Below, piece after piece: positions 45,201 to 60,082 of a DNA stretch of 64,000 nucleotides (positions are counted from its first letter, which is position 1; each line of letters begins with the position of its first letter). A program made the position numbers and the translations under genes. The stretch comes from a virus (taxonomy: Duplodnaviria; Caudoviricetes). A model generated the notes under the pieces. The model had not been told where the DNA came from. It ran no database searches and saw only the letters and a program-made list of their open reading frames with translations. The stretch is from the IMG/VR virus record IMGVR_UViG_3300042866_001263; one strand, written 5' to 3'.

Positions 45201-48200
45201 TTGGATATGCCAAGGCACTTTATCCTGCGCTTGGATTAACTACAGATCAAGAAAGAAAGTGCAAGAGAGATATTAGATATGTTCTTGCTGGATTAAGAAG
45301 AGACCTTATCTTAGGTGGCAATGCTGGTATTGTAACCGCTGCAGAATCATATTTTACTGGAACAGAACTTACTGGCATTCCTTCTGCTGAGTTAACAGCA
45401 ACTCGTTACGCATTCACTAAAGTCAAAGAGCTAGCACAACTAGCGATGCGTAATTGGAAAACGGGTGCTAATGGAACAGGAGCAACATATACTCCAACTT
45501 ACGAAACATCAATTTCATTATTTACAGATGCAACAATTCTGGTAGATCCAGCAACTTCAAAGTGTGCTGGTATTCTCAGCGCAATTGATACTGAGATGAC
45601 ACTATTGGATGGTATCCTTGCTGGAACTACAGTTGCAGGAACTACCACAAAAACATATGGCACCCTATATTCCCCAACGATTACATATCCAGATGGTGCT
45701 TTATATGATGCTGACAATAAGTATATTACTCCACGAGGAGTATGGGATGATCTGCCAGCAATTGAAGCATCGCCATATATTCAAAACGCTTCAGTTATCT
45801 CATTCTTAGGTGGTGGTGGTTGTGAAATTGATGGAGATAAGGTAACTCAACCAAACTCACCATTTGCAGGATTAGAACTTAATGGTGCAGCATCTTATCC
45901 AAACCAGGGCAAATCCATGGTTGCTGCTCAGTTCACCATTGTTTCGTTTGGTGGAACAGGATACAGAGTAGTCAACGATGGTTACTGCCAGTTGGTTTCC
46001 GTATTCGTTCTATTCTGTGCTGATGGTGTTTATGCTGATAGTGGTGGTTATGCTTCTGTTACCAACGCTGCTACCAACTTTGGTATCTATGCTCTAAGAG
46101 CTCGTGGATATAGAAAAGATCCATACACATTTGATATTGGAACCATTACTAATATCACCACATCTGTTACAGGAAAAACAGAAATTACTGTTAGTGGATT
46201 AGGTAGAAGACCATTTGAACATTACGTTGTTAAGGTTGATGGTTATACTAACACAAACACTAACATTGAATACTTTGTCGAATCTGTAAGAAACGTAACT
46301 GTTGGTCCTCCTTTCACAGCAACAATTGTTCTAAATGAAGGAACAGATTTCACGAAGATATCTACAGGAACTCCAGTAGGCAATTCGAATGGAGAGTTTG
46401 TTGGTAAGACAATTAAACTACACAGACCTTCGATTGTTAACTCATCTGGTCACACTTGGGAATTTGCTGGATCTGGCACAAACTACAATGCTCTACCAGA
46501 AAACGGTGGTATTAAGATTGAAGCATACGAACAGGTTTCGGAAAACTATGGTCGTGTTTATACCTCTGGTACTGATGAACTTGGAGACTTCAAAGTAGGT
46601 TACTTTGCTCGTATTGAAAACAGAACTGGTGCTATTACCTTCACAGGTACTGTTACCATCTCGGAAGTTGAATTCCTAAAACTAAAAGGTGGTGACGTTG
46701 TTGTTACTGGTTTCGATGCTTCTAATACTCTTGGTGGTGCTTTTGCTACTGACTCCAAACTACCCACGCAGAAGGCAGTTAAGGATTATATCTCGAATAA
46801 CCTTGGACCATACATCAACAAGCCATATTCCACTAATGCCGTCCCTAGGGCGCTTGTAGAACTCACAGACAGCGGTAAGATCTCTATTGACCAGATCCCT
46901 GCACTAAGACCTTTCAACGTCTTCACAGTGGCAAATCAGGCGGCTCGTCTTGCGTTAGAGGGAGCACTTGCTGGTGACATTGCTATTCAATCCGATACAA
47001 CTACATCATATATTCTCAATAATGACCTAACCAGTTTGTATCTTGGTTTCCCAGTAGATACTGCTTTAGTATTCAATACTGGAAATATCTTTACTGGTTC
47101 TGGATCAGGTGGTCAAATTCAAGCAACAGAATACAGACAAGGTGTTGTCTGGAAGATTAACATTACCAATCCTGGTTCTGGTTATACTGTTGCACCAAAT
47201 ATTGTTATCTCTGGTGGCAATCCTCAAGGTGGTGCAGTATCAGCAACTGCTACTTGTACGATTGCTAACGGTCAAGTTGTTTCTGTAACAATCACGGAAA
47301 ACAATGGTTATATTGGTGGTACAGGATACACAACACAACCATCAGTTATCTTCACTGGTCCTGGTGGTGCTGGTATTACTGCTACTGCTTCTGCTCTGAT
47401 TGAAAATAGATTGTATGGTGATATCGTCAACAACATCAAGATTGTTGACACAGATACAGTTACTTCAAATAATACTCCAACTGGAACTGTTGTTGATATC
47501 TCAAGAGTTGTCAATACTTCATCGAAGATAAATGGCAACTGGGTATCTCTATCATCCAACCAAATCTCAGCCGATGCGATTACTTCTGGTGTTATTGCTA
47601 CGACCCGTCTGGCACAAAACTCATCAGAAGCAAACTCATTTACTTTCCTTAGAGGCGACCAAGCTTATGCACCAGTCCTCCAATCACTAAAAGGAACTGA
47701 AACAAGATACTTTGCCAAGTTGAATAATGCTGTTTCCTCTGGATCAAGCACATTCGTATTCACAACAAACGCAAATGTTCTCAAGGGTCATGGAATTGTC
47801 AGTGACGTTACTGGCATCCCATCAGGAACATTAGTTAATTCTGTTGTAACTGCTGCTGGATTTACCACGGTTCAATTGAATAACCCAGTAACAGCAAACA
47901 TTTCTGCTGCTACAATTATCCAGTTTACACGTCCAGCATCACCACTAATTATCGATGCTGCTTATACAGTAGGAAACTTTGTTGATAGTGTTGTTATTGC
48001 TAATGGTGGCAGTGGATTTACAAATGGTTCTTACTTCGACGTTTCATTGTCGGGCGGAACTGGAACTGGTCTGAAAGCTAACATCATTGTTTCTGGTAAT
48101 GCAGTAACTACAATTACCGTAACGAATGGTGGTGTCAATTACAATGCTGACTTTAGTGTTACTTCAGCACCATCTATTATTGGTTCTGGATCTGGTCTAG

Positions 48201-50476
48201 TTCTTCTAGCAAAAACAGCTACGACTAATAAGAACTATGCTAATGCTGCAGTTGATATCAGGAGAGTTGATGATCTAACTATATCTGCTGACCCATATGG
48301 AACAGCAGGTATTTGCCGTTTCCAAAAGTCACAGTTTACTCTAGGTGCTGCTGGCAACGGATCAGTAACACTCAAGACTGGTGCTGATAGTGGATTGGAT
48401 GCTGACTTGCTTGATGGCGCACAAGGCGCTTATTACTTGAATGCTAGCAATCTAAATGCTGGTACTCTGTCAGTTGATCGTCTTGCTGGAACATACAACA
48501 TCTCCATCTCAGGTCAGTCTGGTAACACATTACGTCTGATTACCTCTACAAATAACCCAACATCTTCACCTTCCCCAAGCGCATTTGCTGAAGGTATTAT
48601 TGCTGACACTAGAAACAATACTTCAGATAGTTTGGAAGATGGTGGAACCAGACACCTCGTTCTCACACTAAGGAATGGATCGTCTGGTTTCGATGCTACT
48701 TTTGGTGGCGTAAGGCAACTTGCCTTCACTGACAACAACAATATGTGGCTTCGTGGTTCTGGAACTGGAGTTACCACATTTGGTTCCTGGGCTAAAGTCT
48801 GGACCGATCTAAATGATGGTTCTGGAACTGGTTTGGACGCTGACAAACTTGATGGTCGCCAAGGAGCATTCTACCAAAATGCTTATAATATAAACGCTGG
48901 CACTATTAGTGATAATCGCTTACCATCATACGCTACTCAAAAGAGTTTCAATAATAGCGTAAAAGTTCTAACAACGACCAATAATCCTTATTATGACATT
49001 TACGTTACTGGTTTTGTATTGACAGCATCTCCATTCCTTGCTGGTCAAAACGTAAACCTATATGATGTCAACTCACAAGGAACTGGAACCATCCTCATCA
49101 CCAATGTAATTACATATAATGATGCTGATGATATGATGGATTATAGCATCATTACTGGTGTTCTAACTACTGGTACATTTAATGGTGCTCAGACAATTGG
49201 TACTGCATCAAACAGAGTTGCTTTCCAAGACTATAGCCTAAACTCAAGTGGAACCTTTGAAACGGCATCACTTGTCAGCAGTACTGGAACTGCTCTACTA
49301 AAACTTGGTAGGAAGGATGGCACTGCATCATCCCCTGCTATCTACTTCAGCAGCAGCTCTTCAGCAGCATCCAACTATAACGTTGCTCTTGTTGCTTCTG
49401 GTGGTAGCAATACTGATGGAAGTGGTAACCTCAACATTGTTGCTGGTAATGCAAGTGCAGTAACGATCAACAACAACGCTATCTGGAACGCTGGTAACCT
49501 AACTCCAGCAACCAACAACGTTGCGAATACCGTTGTTCTCCGTGATGCTTCTGGTAACTTCGCTGCTGGCACAATCACCGCTAGCGTTACTGGTGCTGCT
49601 TCTCTCAACGTATTGAAAGCAGGCGATACGATGACAGGTCAGTTGAAGATTGCCTTTAACAGTGGTCTAGGCATTAGCGAGACTGGCGGAAATGGAGCAA
49701 GATTAACAATTACTTCATCTTCTGCTGGATCTATTCTAAATGTTGTTGATAACTCAGCACTTATTTTCCAAACAGATAGTGGTGTAGAGCAAGGTAGATT
49801 TAGAAATAATGCTGCTGGAGGCGGATTATTAGTCAATACTGCTCTTCGTTTGGTAAATGGTAATATTACACAGGCACAAACTGGAACAACTGCTATTGAT
49901 AATAGCTTTACTTCAGGTAGTAATCCACAAGCATGGAGAATGATTATTCCAGATAATGCCAATACTTCTGGTTTTGGAGTTGGAGCAAATAATCTTGGAA
50001 TTTATTATAATGGATTATCGGATTACCACGCTAAGTTTGTAACTGGAGCAAATAATGTATTTTTCCCTGGAAGAGTTTGGGTTGGTAATAGCAATCAAGC
50101 AGCTACAACCAGTTATCAACTTCAAGTAACTGGTTCTTTTGCCGCTACATCTAAGTCATTCCGTATTCCTCACCCAACCAAAGAGAACCATGACCTCGTT
50201 TATGGTTCGTTGGAAGGACCAGAGCACGGCGTATATGTTCGTGGTAAGTCATCTGGTGTCGTTGAGTTACCTGATTACTGGGGTGCTCTTGTTGATGAAA
50301 ACACCATCACCGTTCAACTCACCCCAATCGGCAATCATATGTCATGGGTTGAGAAGATTGAAGATAACAAGATCCTTATTGGTGGAGGTGAAGCATTCTA
50401 CTTCGTTCAGGCGATGCGTAAGGATATTGAGAAGTTAGAGGTTGAAGTTGAGTTACCTGTCGAGGAGGAAGAGTGA
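42212..50476 (+). CDS. long tail fibre protein, 2754 aa (beta-helix region, LDADxLDG repeats, C-terminal chaperone-like domain)
   Basis: YVSAEIGNDSNNG...TIKRA beta-helix start; GLDADLLDG and GLDADKLDG repeats; C-terminal KSFRIPHP...GSLEGPEHGVYVRG. Confidence 0.85.
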   Translation: MSLEFNADKQIIKSTNPRIIGSGDFTIRSGSGSDEKEVFRVQLDNTTKLPRIGVNRTGEKIEKILINQGFNGSGYTTQPSVLIDPPSLPGGIQAQASAIISAGSVVAIIVDNVGSGYTSAPSVTITGGNGNGAAATAYLDTVDYELDVNGAIRTSTSIISDTARILNLDIDNFVTADAKFRAPSLKTYANNTGTLWASSTSVSINSTLYFGNNIYQALNTGLSGSVPPTHSDGIVSNGTVSLKHIGYRVSSPLLKGYNEDMSYPRSITPPFGDDSDKIATTEYVLNLATNDVGGRVYVSAEIGNDSNNGRSAAAPVRTIKRACQIASQTKGIKETVVVSGGEYVEDNPISIPADCSVVGDSLRIVIVRPNNPNKHMFKFADKNYISGLTFRDKIDSNGDPIATWKYACVFDDKQRIYYDPASGGDFKRSFPIGHQIFGPAKIRVTFQTNTGGTAIAENEYVTGVNTGAVGLVTARTFTSGTVSGTVDVRVLSGSFQTGETFTYPGDGARSWQANTVYTLNTIIYNANNVYSVTTAGTSGSTSPTHTTGAEANGTATLTWIRNVYNLIAVQVESIRAEGEVVDHITDLTTTLPITRVDGSLQADPATGGIVLYTNPLVGRNNFHNFKENQEIEISGLPTSTPDLSSLNGKQRVFKIIRDADGRSRRIVLYKQLAAFTDVNYIPVNASVKSANNYITLSLLNSPNKFPLPNFVLRRYQDACNLIRNNIDFIKDEAYLQIQDEFSPNFSITSIQTTSGTGGDAGYVIFRVTTTGNHGFYLNDTVSIFKNGLTNNINGTFTVTNRVSATAFEVKWLGVIGTLGLTSGTIYTTSSTPALSASAYVQRSFSVPNEAKCRRDIGHVVNAIIMDLEYGGNYNVIEAAKTYVTGTQIGYVSNEIAETVRSVEIVRQLCILAMRRWRTGNGQIADPLYTPVYSNVARYFDTSVVQDTSSPACNDVASAITTLAYVYTDTLSNNATGTQLDAGYLISRNADFIASEALGYAKALYPALGLTTDQERKCKRDIRYVLAGLRRDLILGGNAGIVTAAESYFTGTELTGIPSAELTATRYAFTKVKELAQLAMRNWKTGANGTGATYTPTYETSISLFTDATILVDPATSKCAGILSAIDTEMTLLDGILAGTTVAGTTTKTYGTLYSPTITYPDGALYDADNKYITPRGVWDDLPAIEASPYIQNASVISFLGGGGCEIDGDKVTQPNSPFAGLELNGAASYPNQGKSMVAAQFTIVSFGGTGYRVVNDGYCQLVSVFVLFCADGVYADSGGYASVTNAATNFGIYALRARGYRKDPYTFDIGTITNITTSVTGKTEITVSGLGRRPFEHYVVKVDGYTNTNTNIEYFVESVRNVTVGPPFTATIVLNEGTDFTKISTGTPVGNSNGEFVGKTIKLHRPSIVNSSGHTWEFAGSGTNYNALPENGGIKIEAYEQVSENYGRVYTSGTDELGDFKVGYFARIENRTGAITFTGTVTISEVEFLKLKGGDVVVTGFDASNTLGGAFATDSKLPTQKAVKDYISNNLGPYINKPYSTNAVPRALVELTDSGKISIDQIPALRPFNVFTVANQAARLALEGALAGDIAIQSDTTTSYILNNDLTSLYLGFPVDTALVFNTGNIFTGSGSGGQIQATEYRQGVVWKINITNPGSGYTVAPNIVISGGNPQGGAVSATATCTIANGQVVSVTITENNGYIGGTGYTTQPSVIFTGPGGAGITATASALIENRLYGDIVNNIKIVDTDTVTSNNTPTGTVVDISRVVNTSSKINGNWVSLSSNQISADAITSGVIATTRLAQNSSEANSFTFLRGDQAYAPVLQSLKGTETRYFAKLNNAVSSGSSTFVFTTNANVLKGHGIVSDVTGIPSGTLVNSVVTAAGFTTVQLNNPVTANISAATIIQFTRPASPLIIDAAYTVGNFVDSVVIANGGSGFTNGSYFDVSLSGGTGTGLKANIIVSGNAVTTITVTNGGVNYNADFSVTSAPSIIGSGSGLVLLAKTATTNKNYANAAVDIRRVDDLTISADPYGTAGICRFQKSQFTLGAAGNGSVTLKTGADSGLDADLLDGAQGAYYLNASNLNAGTLSVDRLAGTYNISISGQSGNTLRLITSTNNPTSSPSPSAFAEGIIADTRNNTSDSLEDGGTRHLVLTLRNGSSGFDATFGGVRQLAFTDNNNMWLRGSGTGVTTFGSWAKVWTDLNDGSGTGLDADKLDGRQGAFYQNAYNINAGTISDNRLPSYATQKSFNNSVKVLTTTNNPYYDIYVTGFVLTASPFLAGQNVNLYDVNSQGTGTILITNVITYNDADDMMDYSIITGVLTTGTFNGAQTIGTASNRVAFQDYSLNSSGTFETASLVSSTGTALLKLGRKDGTASSPAIYFSSSSSAASNYNVALVASGGSNTDGSGNLNIVAGNASAVTINNNAIWNAGNLTPATNNVANTVVLRDASGNFAAGTITASVTGAASLNVLKAGDTMTGQLKIAFNSGLGISETGGNGARLTITSSSAGSILNVVDNSALIFQTDSGVEQGRFRNNAAGGGLLVNTALRLVNGNITQAQTGTTAIDNSFTSGSNPQAWRMIIPDNANTSGFGVGANNLGIYYNGLSDYHAKFVTGANNVFFPGRVWVGNSNQAATTSYQLQVTGSFAATSKSFRIPHPTKENHDLVYGSLEGPEHGVYVRGKSSGVVELPDYWGALVDENTITVQLTPIGNHMSWVEKIEDNKILIGGGEAFYFVQAMRKDIEKLEVEVELPVEEEE

Positions 50477-51159
50477 TGGGTATTGGATATAACACTTTCT
50501 CTTTTTCTAATGGATTAATATTTTGTTATGATGCCAGAAATACTAAATCGTATTCTGGTTCTGGAACTACTTTTAATGATATTGGTGGTGGATTGACAAG
50601 TAGTTCTGGAAGCTTTGCTTCATATAATTTAAATCCTGGTCATATTTCCTTTAATGGATCTAATGGTTCTGGCATTCAGTTTCCATCTAGTTCCATACAT
50701 GATACCCAAACACCATCGGTTGAAGTTTGGGTGAGAACAAATGCACTTTCTCAAAATGGTTTTTGGTTTGAAAAAGGAACTGTAAATACACAGTATTCTT
50801 TGTTTCAGGAAGGTGGAGTAATTCAGTGGAGACAGTATTTTACTAGTGGACAGGGATTGACTAACTTATCAACAACAACATCTTCTTATATAACAACAGG
50901 TGTTTGGTATCAAGTGGTTGGAACTTTTACTGCTGGCAGTAGAAAATTATATATTAATGGTTCTCTAGTTAATTCGGATACTCAAAGCGGAACAATAAAT
51001 ACAGGCCAAGCTGGTATTGGGTTGGGTTCCTTTGGAGGTGGAAATACTGGATATCAATTTAATGGTGATCTGGCAATAGTCAAGGCATACAACGTGGAAC
51101 TTTCTGCATCTCAGGTCTTACAAAATTTTAACGCACTCAGAGGGAGGTTTGGAATATAA
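50476..51159 (+). CDS. LamG/concanavalin A-like lectin domain protein 1
   Basis: GLIFCYDARNTKSYSGSGT...WYQVVGT..KLYING...FNGDLAIVKAYNVELS. Confidence 0.8.
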   Translation: MGIGYNTFSFSNGLIFCYDARNTKSYSGSGTTFNDIGGGLTSSSGSFASYNLNPGHISFNGSNGSGIQFPSSSIHDTQTPSVEVWVRTNALSQNGFWFEKGTVNTQYSLFQEGGVIQWRQYFTSGQGLTNLSTTTSSYITTGVWYQVVGTFTAGSRKLYINGSLVNSDTQSGTINTGQAGIGLGSFGGGNTGYQFNGDLAIVKAYNVELSASQVLQNFNALRGRFGI

Positions 51160-51824
51160 TGGCACTAGGTCACTCTCCATTTATAACGTCAAACGGATTA
51201 GTATTTTGTGTTGATGCTGGTAACGCCAAAAGTTATCCTGGTTCAGGAACTACTTGGTTTGATATTGGTGGTGGGGGTAGTGGTAATGCTACTTTGGGAT
51301 CTGGAGTTACTTATAGTTCTTCCAATGGTGGTATCTTGGCATTTAATGGAACATTTCCAAATGGTCAAGCAACTGTTCCACTTTCTTCATTTGATTTTCG
51401 TTCAACTAATCACACTATAATAGCAGCAACTAGATATACTGGCGTAGGACCAAATGGCAGAATTGTCACTTCTTCCATTAGCACTGGCGGCAATAACTGG
51501 TTGATGGGAAATTGGGGTGGTCAAGTAAATAAGTATTATGCTGAAGGTTGGGTGTCATCTTCTGGTGGAGACACCGCAGATACTTCTTGGTTTATTTGGG
51601 CAGCAACTGGAAACATTGGAACAGATACTTGGGAACTTTATAGGAATGGATCTATAATCTATTCAAATAATGGTGGGTCTGCTGGACCATATGGATTGAC
51701 TGTTGGTGGAAGTGGTGAAGCTTCAAATGCTCAAGTTGGATTTGTTTTTGCTTATAACAGAGTTTTAACATCAGCAGAAATTTTACAACATTATAACGTA
51801 CATAGAGGAAGGTTTGGTATCTAA
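51159..51824 (+). CDS. LamG/concanavalin A-like lectin domain protein 2
   Basis: GLVFCVDAGNAKSYPGSGTTWFD...YNRVLTSAEILQHYN. Confidence 0.8.
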   Translation: MALGHSPFITSNGLVFCVDAGNAKSYPGSGTTWFDIGGGGSGNATLGSGVTYSSSNGGILAFNGTFPNGQATVPLSSFDFRSTNHTIIAATRYTGVGPNGRIVTSSISTGGNNWLMGNWGGQVNKYYAEGWVSSSGGDTADTSWFIWAATGNIGTDTWELYRNGSIIYSNNGGSAGPYGLTVGGSGEASNAQVGFVFAYNRVLTSAEILQHYNVHRGRFGI

Positions 51825-52459
51825 TGGCATGTTTTTCAGGAGCTTACATACCAGATAGTGGATTGGTATTTGCTTTAGACGCTTCAAATCAAAAGTATCT
51901 AAGTAATGCTGGTATCATATCAACATCAAATATTACTTATAGTAGTTCATTTGGTGGAGGAAGTATTATTTTCAATGGATCTTCTAGTAGCATATCTATT
52001 CCAAATCCACTAAATCAAGCAAATCTTTCGCAGGTTTGGACGGTATCTGCTTGGATTAATGTTTCTTCTGCTCAACAAACCCAAACTTTATTGGGTGGAT
52101 TGAATAATGGGATCCACGTTGATTGGTTTAATGGTGGGTCCTTATTATATTTAAATGGTGGCGCTAATGATTATTATACATATGGCGGAAATATTAGAAC
52201 ATCTACATGGAAGTTAGTTACATATAGATTTAATAATGTTAATGGAAATAGAACAATATATGATGGTATTACAAATATTAGTACAAGTGGTCCAAATTTT
52301 ACCAGCACTCCATCTGGTCAATCATCATCATTTACAATAGGATCTGGCAGTGGATATATGTTAGGTAATTTAGCACAAATGTTGATTTATAACCGATACA
52401 TTACCGATACTGAATTGACAACCATATACAATAATACCAGGGCACGTTATGGTATATAA
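51824..52459 (+). CDS. LamG/concanavalin A-like lectin domain protein 3
   Basis: GLVFALDASN...WTVSAWIN...IYNRYITDTE. Confidence 0.8.
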   Translation: MACFSGAYIPDSGLVFALDASNQKYLSNAGIISTSNITYSSSFGGGSIIFNGSSSSISIPNPLNQANLSQVWTVSAWINVSSAQQTQTLLGGLNNGIHVDWFNGGSLLYLNGGANDYYTYGGNIRTSTWKLVTYRFNNVNGNRTIYDGITNISTSGPNFTSTPSGQSSSFTIGSGSGYMLGNLAQMLIYNRYITDTELTTIYNNTRARYGI

Positions 52460-52462
52460 ATA
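52455..52462 (+). promoter_or_regulatory. late promoter
   Basis: TATAAATA, the canonical T4 late consensus. Confidence 0.75.
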
Positions 52463-52484: not shown

Positions 52485-54572
52485 ATGGCAAATTCTGATA
52501 AGGATATCCTTATAACGCCGAATAAAGGCACAACATCATTACCAGAACTTAGTTTTGTCGGTCAAGTCAATTCACCGATCAAGCTTCGTGTGCTTGATGA
52601 TAACACACTATCCTTTGAGGGTTCTGCTGGTCAGTTATTTTCAATCAACAACAACCTAACCGCTGGAACAATCTTTGCAGTTTCTGATGTTTCTGGTGTT
52701 CCTGGATTATCTTATGATGCTAATGGAGCATTAAAATTAACTCCGTTTAATGGAGTTACGATGGTTGGTGGCACAACCACCACATCGTCAAACAAACTAG
52801 TAGTTGTAAAACCCAACGCAGGAACAAGTTACTCTTTAGCAATTCAAGTTAATAGTGGTATTGTTGACGGTCAATATGATGGTATTGCCTTCACTCAAGG
52901 TGCTGATGGATCTGCTCCATTAGGTGGTATTCGTGTAGAATATAAATCTAATGGGTCACCTGATTTAGGTTTTTATACAAGAAGTGGTGCTTCAACAGAG
53001 AGTAGAAAACTTTTAATTTATAATGGTGGTAACGTTTCAGTTGGTGGAGATTTTGCTAACTATTCTCGTCTTAATGTTATTGGTGGTTCTGGTATTACCA
53101 TTAGAGCTGATAGTTCATCAACTAGCAATAGATACATTTATTTTAGACAAGCACCAAATGATTACGGTTTCCGTATTACACAAGATGATGCTTCCGTTGG
53201 TATGCTTTTCTTCCGAGCAGTTGATGCTGGAAATGATACTAACCCATTAATTACTTTAGATAGACCAAACTTAAGAGTTGGTATTGGTCAATCCTGGAGC
53301 ACAACAACAAGACCTGGATATACCCTTGATGTTAATGGAGACATCAACTTCTCTGGTAACCTTTATCAGGGTGGTTCTATCTTCAAAACTCTACCAACTC
53401 AAACTGCCACAACTGATGGTTCGGTCCTCAGAACACGCTGGAACTCAGCAACATCAGCATATGAAGCATACTGGACACACGATCTAGATGCTAACTATCG
53501 TCTAGAGAACCCAGATCAGTGGTCATTCCGTTATATCATCAACAGAGGTTATACAGTTGCTGGTTATCAAAATGCTAATCCATGGAGAAATGGCAATAGA
53601 ACTTCACACCCATCAGACGTAACAATTTCTATTGGAGACGTTATTGACTACTCTGCTGCTTATATTGGCGGTTCACATAACGGCGTAAATCTATTTGTAT
53701 ATAATTGCGCCAACTCTTGGTTGCCAGCTTCTGCTGCAACTTGTTCCATGAGCATGATTACTGAGACGAACAGAGGTCTAAACTCATCATGGAATGATAC
53801 AAGGGCACGTTCGTATTCTGGAGCATGGATTGACTTTATGGGTAACCAGTGGAGAACAAATGCTGGCAGAAATAGAGCATATATTAGTTCTGGTAATGGC
53901 AATACATCACGTCATGATCTGAATACAGAGGCGATGATTGCTGAAATTGGTGGCACTATTTCTTATGTTTCTCACGCAGAAGGAGAATATTTTGCTTGGG
54001 TTTCTCAAGGTCAAAATAGATTTGAGTTCTCGACAGAAACGTTTACAGCATGGTCAAGTTACTCCCCAGCTCCTGGATGTGATGGAATTAACAAGCACCA
54101 AGCAACACGTATTGGTTTCTTCTATTGTTCAGAAGGTGGCAACACAGATAGAAACGTAACGAAGAGAAGAGATAGTGATGCTGTTATTCTAAGATCTGGC
54201 ATTATTAAACCAGAAACTGGAGGAGAAGAAAACCTACATACTGGTATGAATAAAGGATATTGTATTTCAAACTACAATTATGCTCAGAATAACAACGCTT
54301 GGATTTACCAATATTATAATGATGTTATCCGTTTTGCTGATGGAACACTCACATACCGCAAAGGAATTCCTGGTGCTTCTTCTGGAACTGGTCAAGAAGG
54401 TGGAGATATGATGGGCGCTGGCGTACCACCAAGAACTTACATGACTTATGCTGGTGGTCAACAAGCTGCTCCTGGCACAGTTGTGTATGGTGGATCTACT
54501 GGTGCCACTCAACTTGGTGGTGCGGCAGTTACTGATGGTGCTGGTGCTACTGGTGGAATTGGAACTTACTAA
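52485..54572 (+). CDS. tail-fibre-related structural protein, 695 aa
   Basis: MANSDKDILITPN N-terminus; LSFEGSAGQLFSI; PGYTLDVNGDINF; beta-rich C-terminal domain. Confidence 0.75.
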   Translation: MANSDKDILITPNKGTTSLPELSFVGQVNSPIKLRVLDDNTLSFEGSAGQLFSINNNLTAGTIFAVSDVSGVPGLSYDANGALKLTPFNGVTMVGGTTTTSSNKLVVVKPNAGTSYSLAIQVNSGIVDGQYDGIAFTQGADGSAPLGGIRVEYKSNGSPDLGFYTRSGASTESRKLLIYNGGNVSVGGDFANYSRLNVIGGSGITIRADSSSTSNRYIYFRQAPNDYGFRITQDDASVGMLFFRAVDAGNDTNPLITLDRPNLRVGIGQSWSTTTRPGYTLDVNGDINFSGNLYQGGSIFKTLPTQTATTDGSVLRTRWNSATSAYEAYWTHDLDANYRLENPDQWSFRYIINRGYTVAGYQNANPWRNGNRTSHPSDVTISIGDVIDYSAAYIGGSHNGVNLFVYNCANSWLPASAATCSMSMITETNRGLNSSWNDTRARSYSGAWIDFMGNQWRTNAGRNRAYISSGNGNTSRHDLNTEAMIAEIGGTISYVSHAEGEYFAWVSQGQNRFEFSTETFTAWSSYSPAPGCDGINKHQATRIGFFYCSEGGNTDRNVTKRRDSDAVILRSGIIKPETGGEENLHTGMNKGYCISNYNYAQNNNAWIYQYYNDVIRFADGTLTYRKGIPGASSGTGQEGGDMMGAGVPPRTYMTYAGGQQAAPGTVVYGGSTGATQLGGAAVTDGAGATGGIGTY

Positions 54573-54583
54573 TAGGAACTAAA

Positions 54584-55375
54584 ATGGAAAGAGTTTATTA
54601 CTTAACAAAAGACACTTCAACTTTTACTATCATTTACGATTTACGAGTTCTCCGTTCTTTATTGAATTGGTATGCGGTTTCTATGCCAATTACTGAAGAA
54701 GGAATGTTTAAGGAGATAGTAAAGGGTAAGTATTACCCAATGGATCCAATTACTGGTTTCAAAGGATTTAAAACATTTGCTGATATTAGAGATAAGATTA
54801 AAATTGTAGAACAAGAAGCAAATGGTGAAGTAGTAGCGTTCCAATCAGAAGGTGTTTATAATTCTATAGGAGACGAACCAATACCAGGAGTTAAAAAAAT
54901 TGTATTGGAAATGGATGCTGAGCGAACAAATGCTGTTATTAATGCTATGAGAATTGTAGCGAAAGCAGTAATAGAAGAAGAGTTTGATAAAAGATTTATG
55001 GAACTCGATACATCATCTCAGATGGAAAGTATGTCATTTGAATTACAATATGAAGAGGCACTACTATACATTAACGACAATGATGCCGATGTTCCATTAT
55101 TGAAAGCTCTAGCAGAGACAAGGGAAATAACCGTAGAAGAAATGGCAAATAAAGTAGTTTCTGCTAGAAGTTCATACAAACAAAAAATTACTACATTATT
55201 GAAGCGAATGACTGAGGTTAAAGGTAAATTCAAAAATGCCAATACCATCAGAGATCTAAATAGATTATATGAGGATTGTTTTAATATTGCCATGCCCGAA
55301 AGTCAAGCAATTGAAGAGGGAAGAGTGGTAGATTTTAAAAGAGTAGTTCCCGTAGGTATTGGTCTGAGATTTTAA
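54584..55375 (+). CDS. putative tail-fibre assembly / DUF4376-like protein
   Basis: E..SF..QY.EA.......VPLL.ALAE.R.IT.EEMA.KV pattern. Confidence 0.5.
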   Translation: MERVYYLTKDTSTFTIIYDLRVLRSLLNWYAVSMPITEEGMFKEIVKGKYYPMDPITGFKGFKTFADIRDKIKIVEQEANGEVVAFQSEGVYNSIGDEPIPGVKKIVLEMDAERTNAVINAMRIVAKAVIEEEFDKRFMELDTSSQMESMSFELQYEEALLYINDNDADVPLLKALAETREITVEEMANKVVSARSSYKQKITTLLKRMTEVKGKFKNANTIRDLNRLYEDCFNIAMPESQAIEEGRVVDFKRVVPVGIGLRF

Positions 55376-55390
55376 TTTTTGGAGATTGTT

Positions 55391-56134
55391 ATGTTAAGTA
55401 AAGAAACCATTTTAGCAAATGCTACGCAGTTTGCTACTGGACAAACTGATTATCAAAATGATAACTTTGTAATGAATTCCCATGTTACAAAGTATCGCCA
55501 AGTTCGTCAAGCTCTCTTAGAAATTGAAAACAGATATCATGGTATCAAAAAAATTAAACTTGATGTTCGCAGGGACGAGATAAAAATAAAGGCACTTGAA
55601 AGAGATTTAGAAAAGTGTGAGGACGAATTAGAAATAGAACTAATCAGATTGGATATAGAAGAACTACAATCTGATAATGATATTCGTAAAAGGAAACTAC
55701 ATAGACAAGAACAAGAAATAGATGTTTTTGTCAAAAGAGTTCAAGAAGAAGTAGAAAGCGAAGAAGATATCCAAAGATATTTTGATCAAGACCCAGAGGA
55801 AGAAAGAAAGTATTGGATTGCTCGAATGGGCAAACAGGCTGCTATGGATATTCTTTCGTTTGGAAGAATTAGTACAGGAAATTTGGATTCGATTGCTATG
55901 CTTCCAGAAGAAGAGCAATTACAAATTCTTTCCATTGGTTTCCAATATTCAAATCTTCTTGGCGGTCAGTTAGCAAAAATCGAAGGTAAGACAAGAGAAT
56001 ATACACAACAACTTTTATCTGATGCCAACAATCTTCATCTACCAACGTTTGAAGGTATTGAGGATAACATGGAATTGAAGATGATTAATTCACTCAAGGA
56101 AATTGTGGAGCAAAAGAAACTGAACGGAAATTGA
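55391..56134 (+). CDS. coiled-coil hypothetical protein
   Basis: GGAG SD before ATG 55391; long heptad region. Confidence 0.75.
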   Translation: MLSKETILANATQFATGQTDYQNDNFVMNSHVTKYRQVRQALLEIENRYHGIKKIKLDVRRDEIKIKALERDLEKCEDELEIELIRLDIEELQSDNDIRKRKLHRQEQEIDVFVKRVQEEVESEEDIQRYFDQDPEEERKYWIARMGKQAAMDILSFGRISTGNLDSIAMLPEEEQLQILSIGFQYSNLLGGQLAKIEGKTREYTQQLLSDANNLHLPTFEGIEDNMELKMINSLKEIVEQKKLNGN

Positions 56135-56136
56135 AA

Positions 56137-56889
56137 ATGAATGAGAATTTTTGGGATTATAGTGCGATTGAAAAGAAGATTGAATTAAATAACGTCCATA
56201 GTATTTTTTCAATACCATTATTTGAAGGCACTATCATGGTTTCAAATCAAGATGAAATCATGAGCGATTTGAAAACAAAATACAATTCTTTAGGTGAAGG
56301 AGACGAACTGCTATCATCAACTGGTTCTACACTCACTCCACTAAAGGCAGAGGAACAAAAAAATGTTTCAGTAAGAAATAGAATTTCCTACTATAGTGAA
56401 GACACTTTACACGAACAAGAACTTTACAAAGAGCTGACTGTTGCTGTTGAAAAAGTAGCGCAGGATATGTTTGATCTTTATGAATACGATTGTATTACAC
56501 CACACGTAGTTACGATGTGGGGAAATGTGTTGGGTCAGCAGGGATACATCCATGCTCATTCCCATAGCAATTCTATGTTCTCTGGTGTTTGGTATCCAGA
56601 AGATCCCCCAGAAACTGAAGAGGGTTCTTTATCAAATTATATAAAATTTATTGATCCGACTAGAATTAAATTTTTCTACATGCCACAGATTAAGAAGAAA
56701 AATTCTCTTAACTCTGGTGAGATATTCATTAAACCAAGGAAAGGAATGTGTTTAATATTTCCATCGTGGTTAGAGCATGATACTATTGCAAATGAAAATC
56801 CTTTCGTTCAACGTTATAGTATTTCATTCAATATTTTTCCCAAAGGAATTTTGGGATATCCAAATTCACTAAATCGCCTTACGTTATGA
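56137..56889 (+). CDS. 2OG-Fe(II) oxygenase (TIGR02466-like)
   Basis: HAHSHSNSMFSGVWY; PRKGMCLIFPSWLEHDT; RYSISFNI. Confidence 0.85.
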   Translation: MNENFWDYSAIEKKIELNNVHSIFSIPLFEGTIMVSNQDEIMSDLKTKYNSLGEGDELLSSTGSTLTPLKAEEQKNVSVRNRISYYSEDTLHEQELYKELTVAVEKVAQDMFDLYEYDCITPHVVTMWGNVLGQQGYIHAHSHSNSMFSGVWYPEDPPETEEGSLSNYIKFIDPTRIKFFYMPQIKKKNSLNSGEIFIKPRKGMCLIFPSWLEHDTIANENPFVQRYSISFNIFPKGILGYPNSLNRLTL

Positions 56890-57536
56890 GCACTCTTGAA
56901 ATATTCCCAGAAGCTATTGGGAAGTATTCTTTTGATTATGAAAGTAGAATTAAAATTAAAGATCTTTGTTTTGATATAATCAAAAGAAATTCTTTTTCTA
57001 AGAATAAAGATAGTAATAATTTATACCACTATTGTAATACCAACAAAGAAAATTTATTAAATCTGGAGCAGTTTAAATGGTTTGAAGAAAAGATCTCAAC
57101 ATTTGCTGCCGACTATATCGAAAATATTTTAGGATATGAGTTAAAAGATGGTGTTGTAATTACAGACTGCTGGATGAATTTATGCCAAAATAATGGTGAT
57201 CAGTTTTTACACAATCATGGCAACTCATTTATTTCTGGAACATACTATGTCAATTTTAATCCAGATGTTCATGGCAAATTAAAATTTCAGAATAAAAATA
57301 TGATGTCTGGAATGAACTCTGCTCCTTATCTAGAATTAACAATTAAAAAGAATACAAAATACAACTCTGGAGGAGCAATAATGAATTATAATGAAGGCGA
57401 TGTATTGCTATGGCAATCACATTTAATTCATGGATATAGTGGTAATAATTCAGACAATCGCATTAGCATCTCATTTAATATTATGCCCAAACATTTTTAT
57501 AATAATTCATATTCATTTAAGGTGGTGAGAGAATGA
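56886..57536 (+). CDS. 2OG-Fe(II) oxygenase (TIGR02466-like)
   Basis: HNHGNSFISGTYY; EGDVLLWQSHLIHG; RISISFNI. Confidence 0.85.
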   Translation: MSTLEIFPEAIGKYSFDYESRIKIKDLCFDIIKRNSFSKNKDSNNLYHYCNTNKENLLNLEQFKWFEEKISTFAADYIENILGYELKDGVVITDCWMNLCQNNGDQFLHNHGNSFISGTYYVNFNPDVHGKLKFQNKNMMSGMNSAPYLELTIKKNTKYNSGGAIMNYNEGDVLLWQSHLIHGYSGNNSDNRISISFNIMPKHFYNNSYSFKVVRE

Positions 57537-58201
57537 TATTAATAGAAAGTGATTATCTCGAAAGAGTTTGTCAAATTAATCCAGAGGCAAAGATCGAAGA
57601 CGTTGTATACGATGGGGTTAAGTTTAAGTGTATCAGAAACTTTCTTAAAAATCCAGAAGAGTACATCGAGTTAATACAACAATTTCCAGCAACTAGAGAT
57701 CACACATATTCTCCTGGTTTCAGACAAGACATCCCACCATGGGTAGCTAAATTTATTACCCTGTATATTCAAGAACATGTGGGTCAATGGAAACCTGCTA
57801 GGGTTTCTTGTAACATTTACAGTGGTAATATGCTAATGAAAGAGCATTCTAATTTACCACATTCAGATCCATTCTATGGTATTTGGAATTTATGGTTAAA
57901 CAAAAAATGTTTAGGTGGAACTGCTTTTTGGGCACATAAAAATAAGTTGCATGTTAGTGAGTTGTCAGAAGAAGAATATAATTACTTATTTGATAAACCA
58001 TTAAATGGTTCTGGTTACGAAACTTGGAAAAACTTTAAAGGAGATGAGGACTGGAAGATGACATGTATTGCTCCCATGGAGTATAACACACTTCTCTTCT
58101 ATAATGGTGGATTTTTTCATTCTCCATGGATCCAAGAAAGCTGGTATTTAGATGAGTATAGATACAGTATGGTTGGCATGGGAGATTTTGAAAATGTTTA
58201 G
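57533..58201 (+). CDS. 2OG-Fe(II) oxygenase (DUF6445-like)
   Basis: PHSDP; GGTAFW; YNTLLFYNGGFFHSP. Confidence 0.75.
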   Translation: MILIESDYLERVCQINPEAKIEDVVYDGVKFKCIRNFLKNPEEYIELIQQFPATRDHTYSPGFRQDIPPWVAKFITLYIQEHVGQWKPARVSCNIYSGNMLMKEHSNLPHSDPFYGIWNLWLNKKCLGGTAFWAHKNKLHVSELSEEEYNYLFDKPLNGSGYETWKNFKGDEDWKMTCIAPMEYNTLLFYNGGFFHSPWIQESWYLDEYRYSMVGMGDFENV

Positions 58202-59885
58202 TTTACCAATTAATCCAAAGATCGATGAGAACTTCGCTAATAATATTCTCATTCCTTTTCTAAAAAAATACAAGCAATACATCTTTGACTTATATTTCAC
58301 TTGTCGTATGCCTCCCTTTATGCAGGATGCCATGGGTGATGTGTTCGAAGATGACTTGAGACAGACAACCTTTAATGCATTATACATTCAAAAGCAAACT
58401 GGTATTCCTCTGTCTGCTACGTTCAACAATCCTTATGTAAGACCAACCCAAGAAAATTTGGATTTGTTTATCAATAACTTCAAATACATCTATGAAGCTG
58501 GTGTTAGAACAGTAACTCTTCCACACACTTCATGGATGCTTACTGGGCAAATTCAAAAGGAGATGCCAGAACTTTATATCAAGAATACTATTCTACATGA
58601 AGTCACAAAGGCAAATGATATTGTCTCGCTTGCTAAAGCAGGTTTTAATTACATCAACCTCGATAGAGATTTGATGAGAGATCAAGACCAACTCAGGCGT
58701 CTCAAGGAAGCAAAAGAGTATTGTGCTTCTATCGGAAAACCAGTTAAGTTCTCTATGCTTGCTAATGAAGGATGCTGGGGTGGATGCCCTATCATGCCAG
58801 AGCATTACCACTATAATAACACAAGAGAGAACCACGAACCACCATACTTTGGTAACATCATCAGTCGTGTATCTTGTGCTAAGTGGGAACAGCAAGATAG
58901 TTCTGCTGTCCTGAAATCATCTAATCTACCACCCTGGAAAAAAGATTGGGAAGAGATGTTTGATCTAGGCATCGATGTTTTCAAACTACATGGCAGAGAA
59001 AGTGTCATGCGTCTTAGGGAAAGTATGGATATCATTGAACGTTGGGCGAAAGATGAAGAACTGCTGTTCCCAGAACTCAATACCTATATCCAAGATAAGA
59101 GTTTGAATGAAAGACCTATTGATATCTGGCGTGAGAAGATCAAAACTTGTAAGTTTGATTGCTGGGACTGTAACTACTGCGAGGCAGTAATTGACGCTCA
59201 CCACAAGAAGCAAGATAGAGTAGTTCATCCATTAGTTACTCTAACACTTGACGCTATTGATAAATCTGCTACTGGAGACACTAAGTTCGATCCACAAGGA
59301 TTTAATATCGAAGGTTTATCTTCTGATAGAGTAAGACATTTTCTCAATCACCTATGTTCTGATCCAAAGAATACTTATTTGGAAATTGGATGTTATACGG
59401 GCAGCACATACTTTGCTGCTATTATGGGAAACAATATTGTTTCATATGCTGTCGATAACTTTGCAGCACCCATATCACCAGCTAGAGATGACATCGAATG
59501 GAAAGGATCTAAGGATCCCAAGGCAGAACTTGCAAGAAATAATGTCTTGTTCGGCAGTTTAAAATCTGCTATAATTGATGTGGATGCGAGACAATTAACT
59601 CAGTCTCACTTCTCAAAAAAACCCAACATCATATTCTATGATGGAGAGCACGATGAACAGCAAATAGATTGTCTGAATAATCTATTACCCAATCTACCAG
59701 ATACATTTATTTTGGTTTTGGATGATGCTAATTTTGATGGAGTTATCCGTAATGGGGAAAAATTTATAGGTATAAATAACCTACAGGTTCTATTTGAAAG
59801 GCAAATCATAACGCCTCAGATAGAAGATGCCGCCAGTTGGTGGAATGGATTAGCAGTTTATGTTTTAACTAAAAAGGAGATTTGA
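58194..59885 (+). CDS. U32-family Fe-S TIM-barrel protein fused to a class I SAM methyltransferase
   Basis: N-terminal half: LANEGCWGGCP, RVSC, GIDVFKLHGRE (cf. U32 KIEGR), CKFDCWDCNYC. C-terminal half: YLEIGCYTGST, AVDNF, IFYDGEH, LVLDDANF. ATG 58194 follows GGAGA. Confidence 0.75.
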   Translation: MFSLPINPKIDENFANNILIPFLKKYKQYIFDLYFTCRMPPFMQDAMGDVFEDDLRQTTFNALYIQKQTGIPLSATFNNPYVRPTQENLDLFINNFKYIYEAGVRTVTLPHTSWMLTGQIQKEMPELYIKNTILHEVTKANDIVSLAKAGFNYINLDRDLMRDQDQLRRLKEAKEYCASIGKPVKFSMLANEGCWGGCPIMPEHYHYNNTRENHEPPYFGNIISRVSCAKWEQQDSSAVLKSSNLPPWKKDWEEMFDLGIDVFKLHGRESVMRLRESMDIIERWAKDEELLFPELNTYIQDKSLNERPIDIWREKIKTCKFDCWDCNYCEAVIDAHHKKQDRVVHPLVTLTLDAIDKSATGDTKFDPQGFNIEGLSSDRVRHFLNHLCSDPKNTYLEIGCYTGSTYFAAIMGNNIVSYAVDNFAAPISPARDDIEWKGSKDPKAELARNNVLFGSLKSAIIDVDARQLTQSHFSKKPNIIFYDGEHDEQQIDCLNNLLPNLPDTFILVLDDANFDGVIRNGEKFIGINNLQVLFERQIITPQIEDAASWWNGLAVYVLTKKEI

Positions 59886-59890
59886 TTACT

Positions 59891-60082
59891 ATGGCAACCG
59901 ATACCGCAACACTGAAAGAAAATTTCACTACTCAACTTACTAACGTTGACGCTCAGATTGTCAAACTAGAAGAAGAACTAGCAAAAGCAAAGGAATACAA
60001 ACTCAAGCTTCAAGGTGGTCTAGAAACTCTAGAACTTCTCACTCCAACTGAAGAAGCACCTGCCGAAGCAGCAGCAGAATAA
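59891..60082 (+). CDS. small coiled-coil protein
   Basis: AGGAG SD before ATG 59891. Confidence 0.7.
   Translation: MATDTATLKENFTTQLTNVDAQIVKLEEELAKAKEYKLKLQGGLETLELLTPTEEAPAEAAAE

Follow-up and report, generated by a model that had tools for sequence, protein, structure and literature searches.

A U32-like barrel fused to a predicted O-methyltransferase in a conserved cassette of marine cyanomyoviruses

The stretch of DNA analysed here, 64,000 nucleotides of the IMG/VR virus record IMGVR_UViG_3300042866_001263 (hereafter the window), derives from a T4-like cyanomyovirus whose closest isolates are Synechococcus phages of the Kyanoviridae. Between its tail-fibre and neck genes lies an open frame of 563 amino acids (aa; product P0001, coordinates in Table 1) that is predicted to join an N-terminal barrel related to the U32 proteins to a C-terminal methyltransferase dependent on S-adenosylmethionine (SAM). 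The characterised U32 proteins (UbiU/UbiV, TrhP and RlhA) have recently been recognised as O2-independent, prephenate-requiring aromatic-ring hydroxylases that carry [4Fe-4S] clusters, and the family is described as almost exclusively bacterial (PMC10990095). Judged from sequence comparisons and structural models, the identity of the phage enzyme at the level of its domains is firm. We interpret it as a two-domain tailoring enzyme that would hydroxylate and then methylate an acceptor, most likely not a nucleic acid, an interpretation whose chances of being right or wrong we consider evenly balanced.

An earlier reading of the gene from its letters alone (the original prediction) had proposed such a fusion, and every motif it quoted was located in the 563-aa translation. 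The N-terminal half contains EGCWGGCP (C194, C198), a further SC (C228), KLHGRE and CKFDCWDCNYC (319–329), and the C-terminal half contains the class I methyltransferase motifs LEIGCYTGS, YAVD, FYDGEHD and LDDANF. An alternative, longer frame opens at 58152, but as relatives begin at MFSLPINPK, 58194 is the likely true start. Across 74 relatives, some as distant as about 23% identity, the cysteines (Cys) of the motifs do not vary, which argues that the conserved residues reflect selection and not chance.

Fold and relatives of the two domains

A model of the N-terminal domain built with a 74-sequence alignment folds as a (beta/alpha)8 barrel, i.e., a triosephosphate isomerase (TIM) barrel, with a helical tail (predicted local distance difference test, pLDDT, 92.6; 85.4 for the full-length model). 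In an exhaustive structural search the U32 peptidase Mk0906 (5d88) was the lone top match (Z 16.7, root-mean-square deviation (rmsd) 3.1 Å, 223 aligned residues), with generic TIM barrels trailing from Z 12.6, and Foldseek likewise ranked 5d88 first for this domain (E 1.7e-6, TMt 0.70). The U32 fold anticipated by the original prediction was therefore recovered by both structure searches. In the ESM Atlas the domain resembles, over 307 residues and with a template modelling (TM) score of 0.74, a cluster of which 99% is PF01136, and this family is represented in 20% of the members of the nearest language-model clusters. When the full-length model was used as the query, Foldseek placed PRMT5 first; this protein shares the layout of a TIM barrel plus a Rossmann methyltransferase at an rmsd of about 23 Å, and we regard the match as an architectural coincidence rather than homology.

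Sequence comparisons point in the same direction as the fold. Searched against the six-frame translation of the Escherichia coli K-12 chromosome, the family profile (A3) matched just trhP (E 2.3e-4) and rlhA, two of the four U32 genes that PF01136 finds there. Relatives also occur in 14 of 401 Spirochaetota genomes; in three of the 14, an open reading frame (ORF) of 456–462 aa matches A3 at E about 1e-15 as well as PF01136 with 39.7–42.8 bits (cut-off 22.4) and thus provides a transitive homology link to U32. Based on the fold match, the trhP and rlhA hits and this spirochaete link, the placement of the N-terminal domain in the U32 superfamily is supported, where it would form a separate, undescribed clade outside the Pfam family as defined. 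Other comparisons were silent: nothing meaningful came from aligning the family profile by hhalign with UbiU or UbiV as single sequences or from searching PDB sequences with the full-length profile, and Pfam and NCBIfam gave only weak matches of P0001 to a lysine-5,6-aminomutase TIM barrel and to Methyltransf_24.

The C-terminal half is recognised more readily through its relatives, 25 of 29 of which match PF13578 (Methyltransf_24; best E 2.1e-9), than through P0001 itself, which scores 19.5 bits and stays under the cut-off of 26.3; a profile of this half found nothing meaningful among PDB sequences. In the structural search residues of about 360–562 gave tied matches at Z 14.6–16.2 to MeT1, TomG, COMT, TrmR (15.9), SpnH and MycF, so that the closest methyltransferase folds are all O-methyltransferases. 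E397, G399, G403, D421, D483, H486, D510, D511 and N513 are invariant in this domain and presumably correspond to the SAM site and the cation site of COMT/NovP-type enzymes. The assignment of the C-terminal half as a SAM-dependent O-methyltransferase of the COMT/TrmR/TylF type, which bears out the methyltransferase proposed earlier, is thus supported by relatives and predicted fold, and the enzyme is probably Mg2+-dependent. TylF, MycF, SpnH and MeT1, as well as COMT and CCoAOMT (Methyltransf_24/Methyltransf_3), share with it the Rossmann fold and presumably motif I and the invariant D...DD-x-N set; it differs from them in being fused to a U32-like domain, in its sub-threshold Pfam score and in lacking a sequence-level PDB match. 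As modelled, the fold does not separate RNA, sugar and catechol acceptors.

The fusion itself is widespread. It was found at full length in 123 of 126 matching phage records (51–56% identity by tblastn), all of them labelled 'hypothetical protein', in 1642 clusters of a large protein collection and on at least 563 IMG/VR viral contigs. PHROGs lists the full-length family as phrog_1458, with its function unassigned, and the N-terminal domain alone as phrog_36869, whereas some homologues bear the JGI label 'O-methyltransferase YrrM'. This recurrence in isolate cyanophages and viral contigs alike indicates that the fusion is real and not an assembly artefact, and that the family is abundant in marine cyanomyoviruses. 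The original prediction had also asked whether the halves are separate genes in close relatives. Separate, adjacent genes do exist, although in distant phage relatives (the contigs L120–L123 described below), so that they speak for a functional link between the two activities and not for an artefact.

The cassette and its rearranged counterparts

Gene-order comparisons identify the fusion as the last gene of a conserved cassette, p695-p263-p251-fusion (T4-GC351–354), which is new here. Among the 69 viral contigs with enough upstream sequence, a p251 homologue precedes the fusion in 66, and in 61 of these 66 a p263 homologue is present too. The order p695-p263-p251-fusion dominates among these contigs and recurs in the isolates S-CAM4, P-HM2 and S-RIM2. 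The first gene encodes a Gly/Ser-rich, fibre-like product and is probably a fibre-associated protein. T4-GC351–354 were listed as hypothetical by Sullivan et al. 2010 and occur in P-HM2 but not in its co-isolate P-HM1 (PMC3037559 supplement); these two phages form a natural test pair for the effect of the cassette. In the P-HM2 infection, PHM2_099, PHM2_100 and PHM2_101 were classified as 'Late (D)' both in the light and in the dark (PMC5082946 supplementary file 3), and the late P-HM2 orthologue of the fusion is co-transcribed with structural genes.

Outside the cyanophages the module occurs in split and rearranged forms. The Ralstonia jumbo phage RP12 carries a p251-like gene, a stand-alone U32-like gene and a DUF401/CitMHS-type permease. 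A Leptospirales metagenome-assembled genome (MAG; 6.4 Mb) combines a 1511-aa LamG/TafC-like protein with p251-like, p263-like and U32-like genes, a DUF401 permease and a patatin; a BLAST comparison with the ORFs of the window found no phage structural genes within 60 kb of this operon. Four IMG/VR contigs (L120–L123) hold a split module of two p695-type genes, p251-like and p263-like genes, a radical SAM gene and a U32-like gene, followed by a methyltransferase, a Phenol_MetA_deg-like protein and a DUF401 permease. Here the U32-like protein is 45% identical to the N-terminal domain and the separate methyltransferase 32–35% identical to the C-terminal domain, and the protein between methyltransferase and permease has features of a Phenol_MetA_deg-like outer-membrane channel, which we treat as a lead only. 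The permease directly follows the U32-like gene in RP12 and in the Leptospirales MAG and is also part of the L122 and L123 modules. With p251-type genes present in RP12, the Leptospirales MAG, L119 and L120–L122, p251 is the universal companion of the U32-like gene; p263 homologues were found in the Leptospirales operon and in L121/L122.

Radical SAM enzymes are a further recurrent partner. Other stand-alone U32-like relatives come directly after a radical SAM gene, and one stand-alone relative clusters with transketolase halves, a glycosyltransferase, sugar epimerases/dehydratases and four radical SAM genes. In two proteins from AT-rich contigs (P0391 and P0392, 843–858 aa, 26% GC) the U32-like domain, Methyltransf_24 and a C-terminal radical SAM domain with a canonical CX3CX2C motif form a single polypeptide. 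Both proteins align with the full length of P0001 at 44% identity, and the gene adjoining a stand-alone U32-like gene (P0128) encodes a homologue of their radical SAM part. The U32-like domain, the methyltransferase and the radical SAM enzyme are thus linked both by neighbourhood and by fusion. In one relative within alignment A5 (probably P0124), the U32-like domain is followed by DUF7483 (E 1e-49) where the methyltransferase would otherwise stand, which means that at least one swap of the C-terminal partner has taken place. A search for related loci with P0135 and a protein atlas search with p251 returned nothing, and a predicted complex of the N-terminal domain with p251 scored 0.00, which gives no verdict and counts neither way.

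Cysteine sites, chemistry and possible substrates

Over the 74 relatives C194, C198, C228, C319, C323, C326 and C329 are invariant and D157, R158, E192, E203, H204, K264, G267 and R268 nearly so. In the model the conserved residues of the N-terminal domain sit at the C-terminal ends of the barrel strands, the usual active face of such barrels. In the HMMER alignment NLDRDL pairs with L(S/A)REL of U32 proteins, MLANEGC with TrhP MAYSGRC (C194 on C177) and FKLHGRE with LKIEGR. In a MAFFT alignment that included the spirochaete intermediates and the four E. coli paralogues, C194/C198/C228 fall on UbiU C176/C193/C232, which are demonstrated [4Fe-4S] ligands (PMC6747719), whereas global hhalign pairs C194/C198 with the U32 CX3/4C pair instead; the exact Cys register between the phage domain and U32 is accordingly uncertain. 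Measured against the canonical U32 motif CX6CX15CX3/4C (CXnCX12CX3C in UbiV), the phage pattern CX3CX29C places its three Cys at ligand positions 2, 3 and the UbiU-type 4, in a register that differs between methods, and the first canonical Cys is absent, as in UbiV.

The CX3CX2CX2C box behind the barrel has no counterpart in TrhP, RlhA, UbiU or UbiV in the alignment but is universal in the clade, with the spacing CX4CX2CX2C in the spirochaete intermediates. Radical SAM enzymes carry CX3CX2C after beta-1 of a partial TIM barrel, where three Cys bind the cluster and one Fe stays open for SAM. C319-X3-C323-X2-C326 shows this spacing, but we rejected it as a radical SAM site on the grounds of its position after the barrel, the invariant fourth Cys and the altered spacing in relatives, and true radical SAM domains occur as partners of their own; in Pfam, P0001 gave no match to PF04055 (radical SAM). 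From the residue pattern, the protein may hold two metal sites, a cluster on the substrate side bound by three Cys and a second cluster (or a zinc site) with a full set of ligands, and one chain might in this way carry two clusters as the UbiU–UbiV heterodimer does.

The Cys could instead bind zinc or form disulfides, in which case the barrel would be a non-redox enzyme or a fibre-maturation factor (peptidase or chaperone) and the methyltransferase unrelated to it. The U32 family was originally described as peptidases ('U32 collagenase'), the nearest fold is the solved U32 structure Mk0906, the box could be a Zn(Cys)4 knuckle and the first cassette gene is Gly/Ser-rich and fibre-like. However, all characterised U32 proteins with conserved Cys are Fe-S dependent and linked to hydroxylation, the three barrel Cys align to proven cluster ligands and coupling to radical SAM Fe-S enzymes recurs at the level of both genes and fusions, which makes this explanation very improbable. 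Mk0906 itself, although the closest solved fold, is only 10% identical and consists of the barrel alone (247 residues), so that the Cys box and the methyltransferase of the phage protein have no counterpart in it.

Returning to the tailoring enzyme, domain 1 would introduce or oxidise a hydroxyl on the acceptor and domain 2 would then methylate that group. Domain 1 is a deeply divergent U32 protein that has kept the barrel, the L-x-R-x-L and K-x-x-G-R motifs of the active face and three putative cluster Cys. The enzyme would act within the late cassette and, elsewhere, together with radical SAM and transporter-like genes. By analogy with characterised members we infer Fe-S binding and hydroxylase chemistry for the phage domain. 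Sequential hydroxylation and O-methylation appears reasonable on the same basis, since the two activities are persistently coupled and precedents exist in the Bacillus subtilis yrrMNO operon (yrrM-yrrN-yrrO), in the TrhO–TrmR fusions of eukaryotes (PMC6599085) and in hydroxylation by UbiU/V followed by O-methylation (PMC6747719).

The closest known systems are TrhP/TrmR and UbiU–UbiV. TrhP (YegQ; TrhP1/TrhP2 in B. subtilis) and TrmR (YrrM) convert ho5U34 of tRNA to mo5U34 and likewise represent a U32-type protein genetically coupled to a COMT-like O-methyltransferase; trhP is the top E. coli match of the family profile and TrmR one of the best methyltransferase folds. They are, however, separate proteins, whereas the phage enzyme is a single chain that lacks a Pfam U32 match, a Peptidase_U32_C domain and equivalents of E162 and C170, has the extra four-Cys box, and is encoded by a late gene in a cassette with non-RNA partners. 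UbiU–UbiV, acting with UbiT and UbiG in O2-independent ubiquinone hydroxylation followed by O-methylation, are TIM-barrel U32 proteins with [4Fe-4S] clusters. They resemble the phage domain in the MAFFT alignment of the UbiU ligands, in the first canonical Cys that UbiV lacks, in having two clusters per functional unit (as suggested for the phage chain) and in an accessory non-catalytic partner, UbiT, to which p251/p263 may be compared. In contrast to this heterodimer of U32 paralogues, the phage system comprises one chain with a novel second site and a fused methyltransferase, has no SCP2 partner and shares an identity of about 10%. The phage system is set apart from both by being viral and single-chain, by its partial canonical signature and extra four-Cys site, and by its place in a module that also includes two helper proteins and, in some relatives, a radical SAM enzyme.

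The kinship with TrhP and TrmR raises the question of an RNA substrate, i.e., conversion of ho5U (or ho5C) in host or phage tRNA or rRNA into a 5-methoxy base, which could retune decoding for the AT-rich phage. That trhP is the best and almost sole E. coli match of the profile fits this proposal, as do the JGI name 'O-methyltransferase YrrM' of some homologues and the yrrM-yrrN-yrrO and TrhO–TrmR precedents, and TrmR is among the best folds at Z 15.9, though there it ties with O-methyltransferases that act on sugars and catechols. The orthologue belongs to the late genes and is co-transcribed with structural genes, and the gene is locked in the p695/p263/p251 cassette or, elsewhere, accompanied by radical SAM and transporter-like genes. 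Pfam detected no Peptidase_U32_C or other RNA-binding domain on P0001, TrhP E162 and C170 have no counterparts in it, and the window contains no tRNA genes. The protein is also acidic (isoelectric point 5.3 overall and 4.7 for the methyltransferase domain), although this measure failed to discriminate between substrates. Because of the late expression, the fixed cassette, the lack of an RNA-binding U32 C-terminal domain and the transporter and sugar contexts of relatives, tRNA, rRNA and DNA are disfavoured, and we regard RNA modification as improbable. Of the original prediction, the coupling of U32-type and O-methyltransferase halves is supported, and the nucleic acids among its proposed targets are disfavoured.

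A small, possibly aromatic, metabolite is a tentative candidate for the acceptor, suggested by the permease and the channel-like gene in relatives. The enzyme would then belong to an auxiliary metabolic pathway of uptake or synthesis, radical SAM chemistry, U32-type hydroxylation and O-methylation of an aromatic or sugar-derived compound, comparable to UbiU/V with UbiG. The DUF401/CitMHS-type permease in RP12, the Leptospirales MAG, L122 and L123, the Phenol_MetA_deg-like channel (again as a lead only), the relative inside a sugar-nucleotide/glycosyltransferase cluster with four radical SAM genes, the likeness of the methyltransferase to MeT1, SpnH, MycF, TomG and COMT, and the UbiU/V precedent are all consistent with such a pathway. 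The cyanophage cassette, on the other hand, is without a transporter, the gene is a late one amid tail-fibre and neck genes, a p695-type protein accompanies the module in three phage groups, as does a large LamG/TafC-like surface protein in the bacterium. The second candidate, put forward with similar reserve, is the p695-type protein encoded in the cassette itself, of which a residue or an attached group would be modified; in the bacterium the large surface protein would take this role. A more specific version, in which the two-cluster U32 clade with p251/p263 (and a radical SAM enzyme in some phages) performs O2-independent prephenate-type hydroxylation and then O-methylation of a phage fibre or receptor-binding protein, or of a cofactor on it, seems unlikely but would, if true, mean that abundant ocean phages carry an enzymatically 'methoxylated' virion component, a new form of viral post-translational tailoring.

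Several observations weigh against the interpretation as a U32-like hydroxylating and methylating enzyme. P0001 has no match to PF01136 at E ≤ 1 and none of 66 relatives matches it at E ≤ 0.01; of the U32 assignment made originally, the TIM-barrel fold and the sequence link to U32 stand but a match to the Pfam Peptidase_U32 model does not. The hhalign comparison of the family profile with the four-paralogue E. coli alignment was weak (E 5.5e-4, probability 12%). The phage domain has just three of the four canonical cluster Cys, and alignment methods disagree on the U32 partners of C194 and C198. The essential residues of TrhP include E162, C170 and C177 (PMC6599085), of which C177 alone has an aligned equivalent (C194) in P0001, the other two falling on S179 and S187 in MAFFT; the Fe-S site foreseen in the original prediction thus gains from Cys that align to experimentally defined U32 ligands and loses from two of three TrhP-essential residues without an equivalent. 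U32 hydroxylation has so far not been reconstituted in vitro for any member (PMC10990095), an oxygen-sensitive Fe-S enzyme would be odd in an oxygenic host, and neighbouring 2-oxoglutarate (2OG) oxygenases could supply the needed hydroxylation. Finally, the transporter-like and sugar-gene neighbours of relatives point to differing substrates, which makes the substrate call weak.

Very few functions have been assigned within the large U32 family. A sister clade carried by viruses, with an extra putative cluster site and repeated links by fusion and synteny to O-methyltransferase and radical SAM enzymes and to two helper proteins, would offer a compact single-chain system for the in vitro study of U32 chemistry, and it may bring to light a new modification of virions or metabolites with an effect on phage–host interaction in the ocean.

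Features and neighbours in the window

Table 1 Coordinates of the fusion gene, its predicted domains and motifs, the cassette and related loci
Feature	Location	Strand	Remark
p695 (C-terminal phrog_1417; T4-GC351, 'sericin-like')	52485..54572	+	First cassette gene
p263 (phrog_1604/10301; T4-GC352), second helical cassette protein	54584..55375	+	In 61/66 viral contigs
p251 (phrog_1409; T4-GC353), helical acidic protein	55379..56134	+	Neighbour of U32-like gene
Three oxygenase genes (two 2OG-FeII_Oxy_5, one DUF6445)	56131..58201	+	Between p251 and fusion
Fusion gene, U32-like putative Fe-S domain plus O-methyltransferase	58194..59885	+	phrog_1458; T4-GC354
Predicted N-terminal TIM barrel, U32 superfamily, aa 1 to about 340	58194..59213	+	Model pLDDT 92.6
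LDRDL (aa 156-160), aligned to U32 L(S/A)REL	58659..58673	+	D157, R158 nearly invariant
Cys triad C194-X3-C198-X29-C228, putative first Fe-S site	58773..58877	+	Invariant, 74 relatives
KLHGRE (aa 264-269), counterpart of U32 KIEGR	58983..59000	+	K264, G267, R268 nearly invariant
CKFDCWDCNYC box (C319, C323, C326, C329), putative second all-Cys metal site	59148..59180	+	Invariant, 66-74 relatives
Methyltransf_24 / cation-dependent O-methyltransferase-like domain, aa about 375-563	59316..59882	+	Pfam in relatives and fold
TATAAATA, T4-type late-promoter-like octamer	52455..52462	+	23 nt before p695 start, in 25-nt gap
TATAAATA, second copy	59771-59778	+	Within 3' end of fusion, before 66-aa gene and gp13
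Leptospirales operon (L012 / L018)	Contig CBDEUV010000002.1, about 5.26 Mb		1511-aa protein is DUF6519/DUF2341/LamG, weakly TafC-like
Triple fusion at L119	1465-4041		p251-like gene directly upstream

The oxygenase trio that separates p251 from the fusion in the window is confined to this phage and its close relatives. In the majority of relatives p251 lies directly next to the fusion, with any 2OG genes downstream, where the DUF6445 gene of S-CAM4 lies too. Tight coupling of the 2OG/DUF6445 genes to the fusion was therefore rejected in favour of a lineage-specific insertion of variable position. The copies of TATAAATA ahead of the cassette and within the end of the fusion can be taken as a hint only, as its count over the whole window is not above chance. 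No radical SAM gene was found within the window.

Downstream of the fusion follow the neck proteins gp13 and gp14, gp15 and the small terminase. The 66-aa ORF at 59882–60082 (+) in between encodes a coiled coil (phrog_580) that is 60% identical to a 65-aa S-CAM4 gene product. It was dismissed as a partner of the fusion, since it stays with gp13 when other genes intervene, and because it always lies just before this neck gene it is probably a neck or assembly factor. Upstream of the cassette, the tail fibre is a 2754-aa ORF at 42212–50476 (+; phrog_5342). It is followed by small ORFs at 50473–51159, 51159–51824 and 51824–52459, the first and third of which contain Laminin_G_3 (concanavalin-like) domains; these ORFs look like fibre-tip or accessory lectins.

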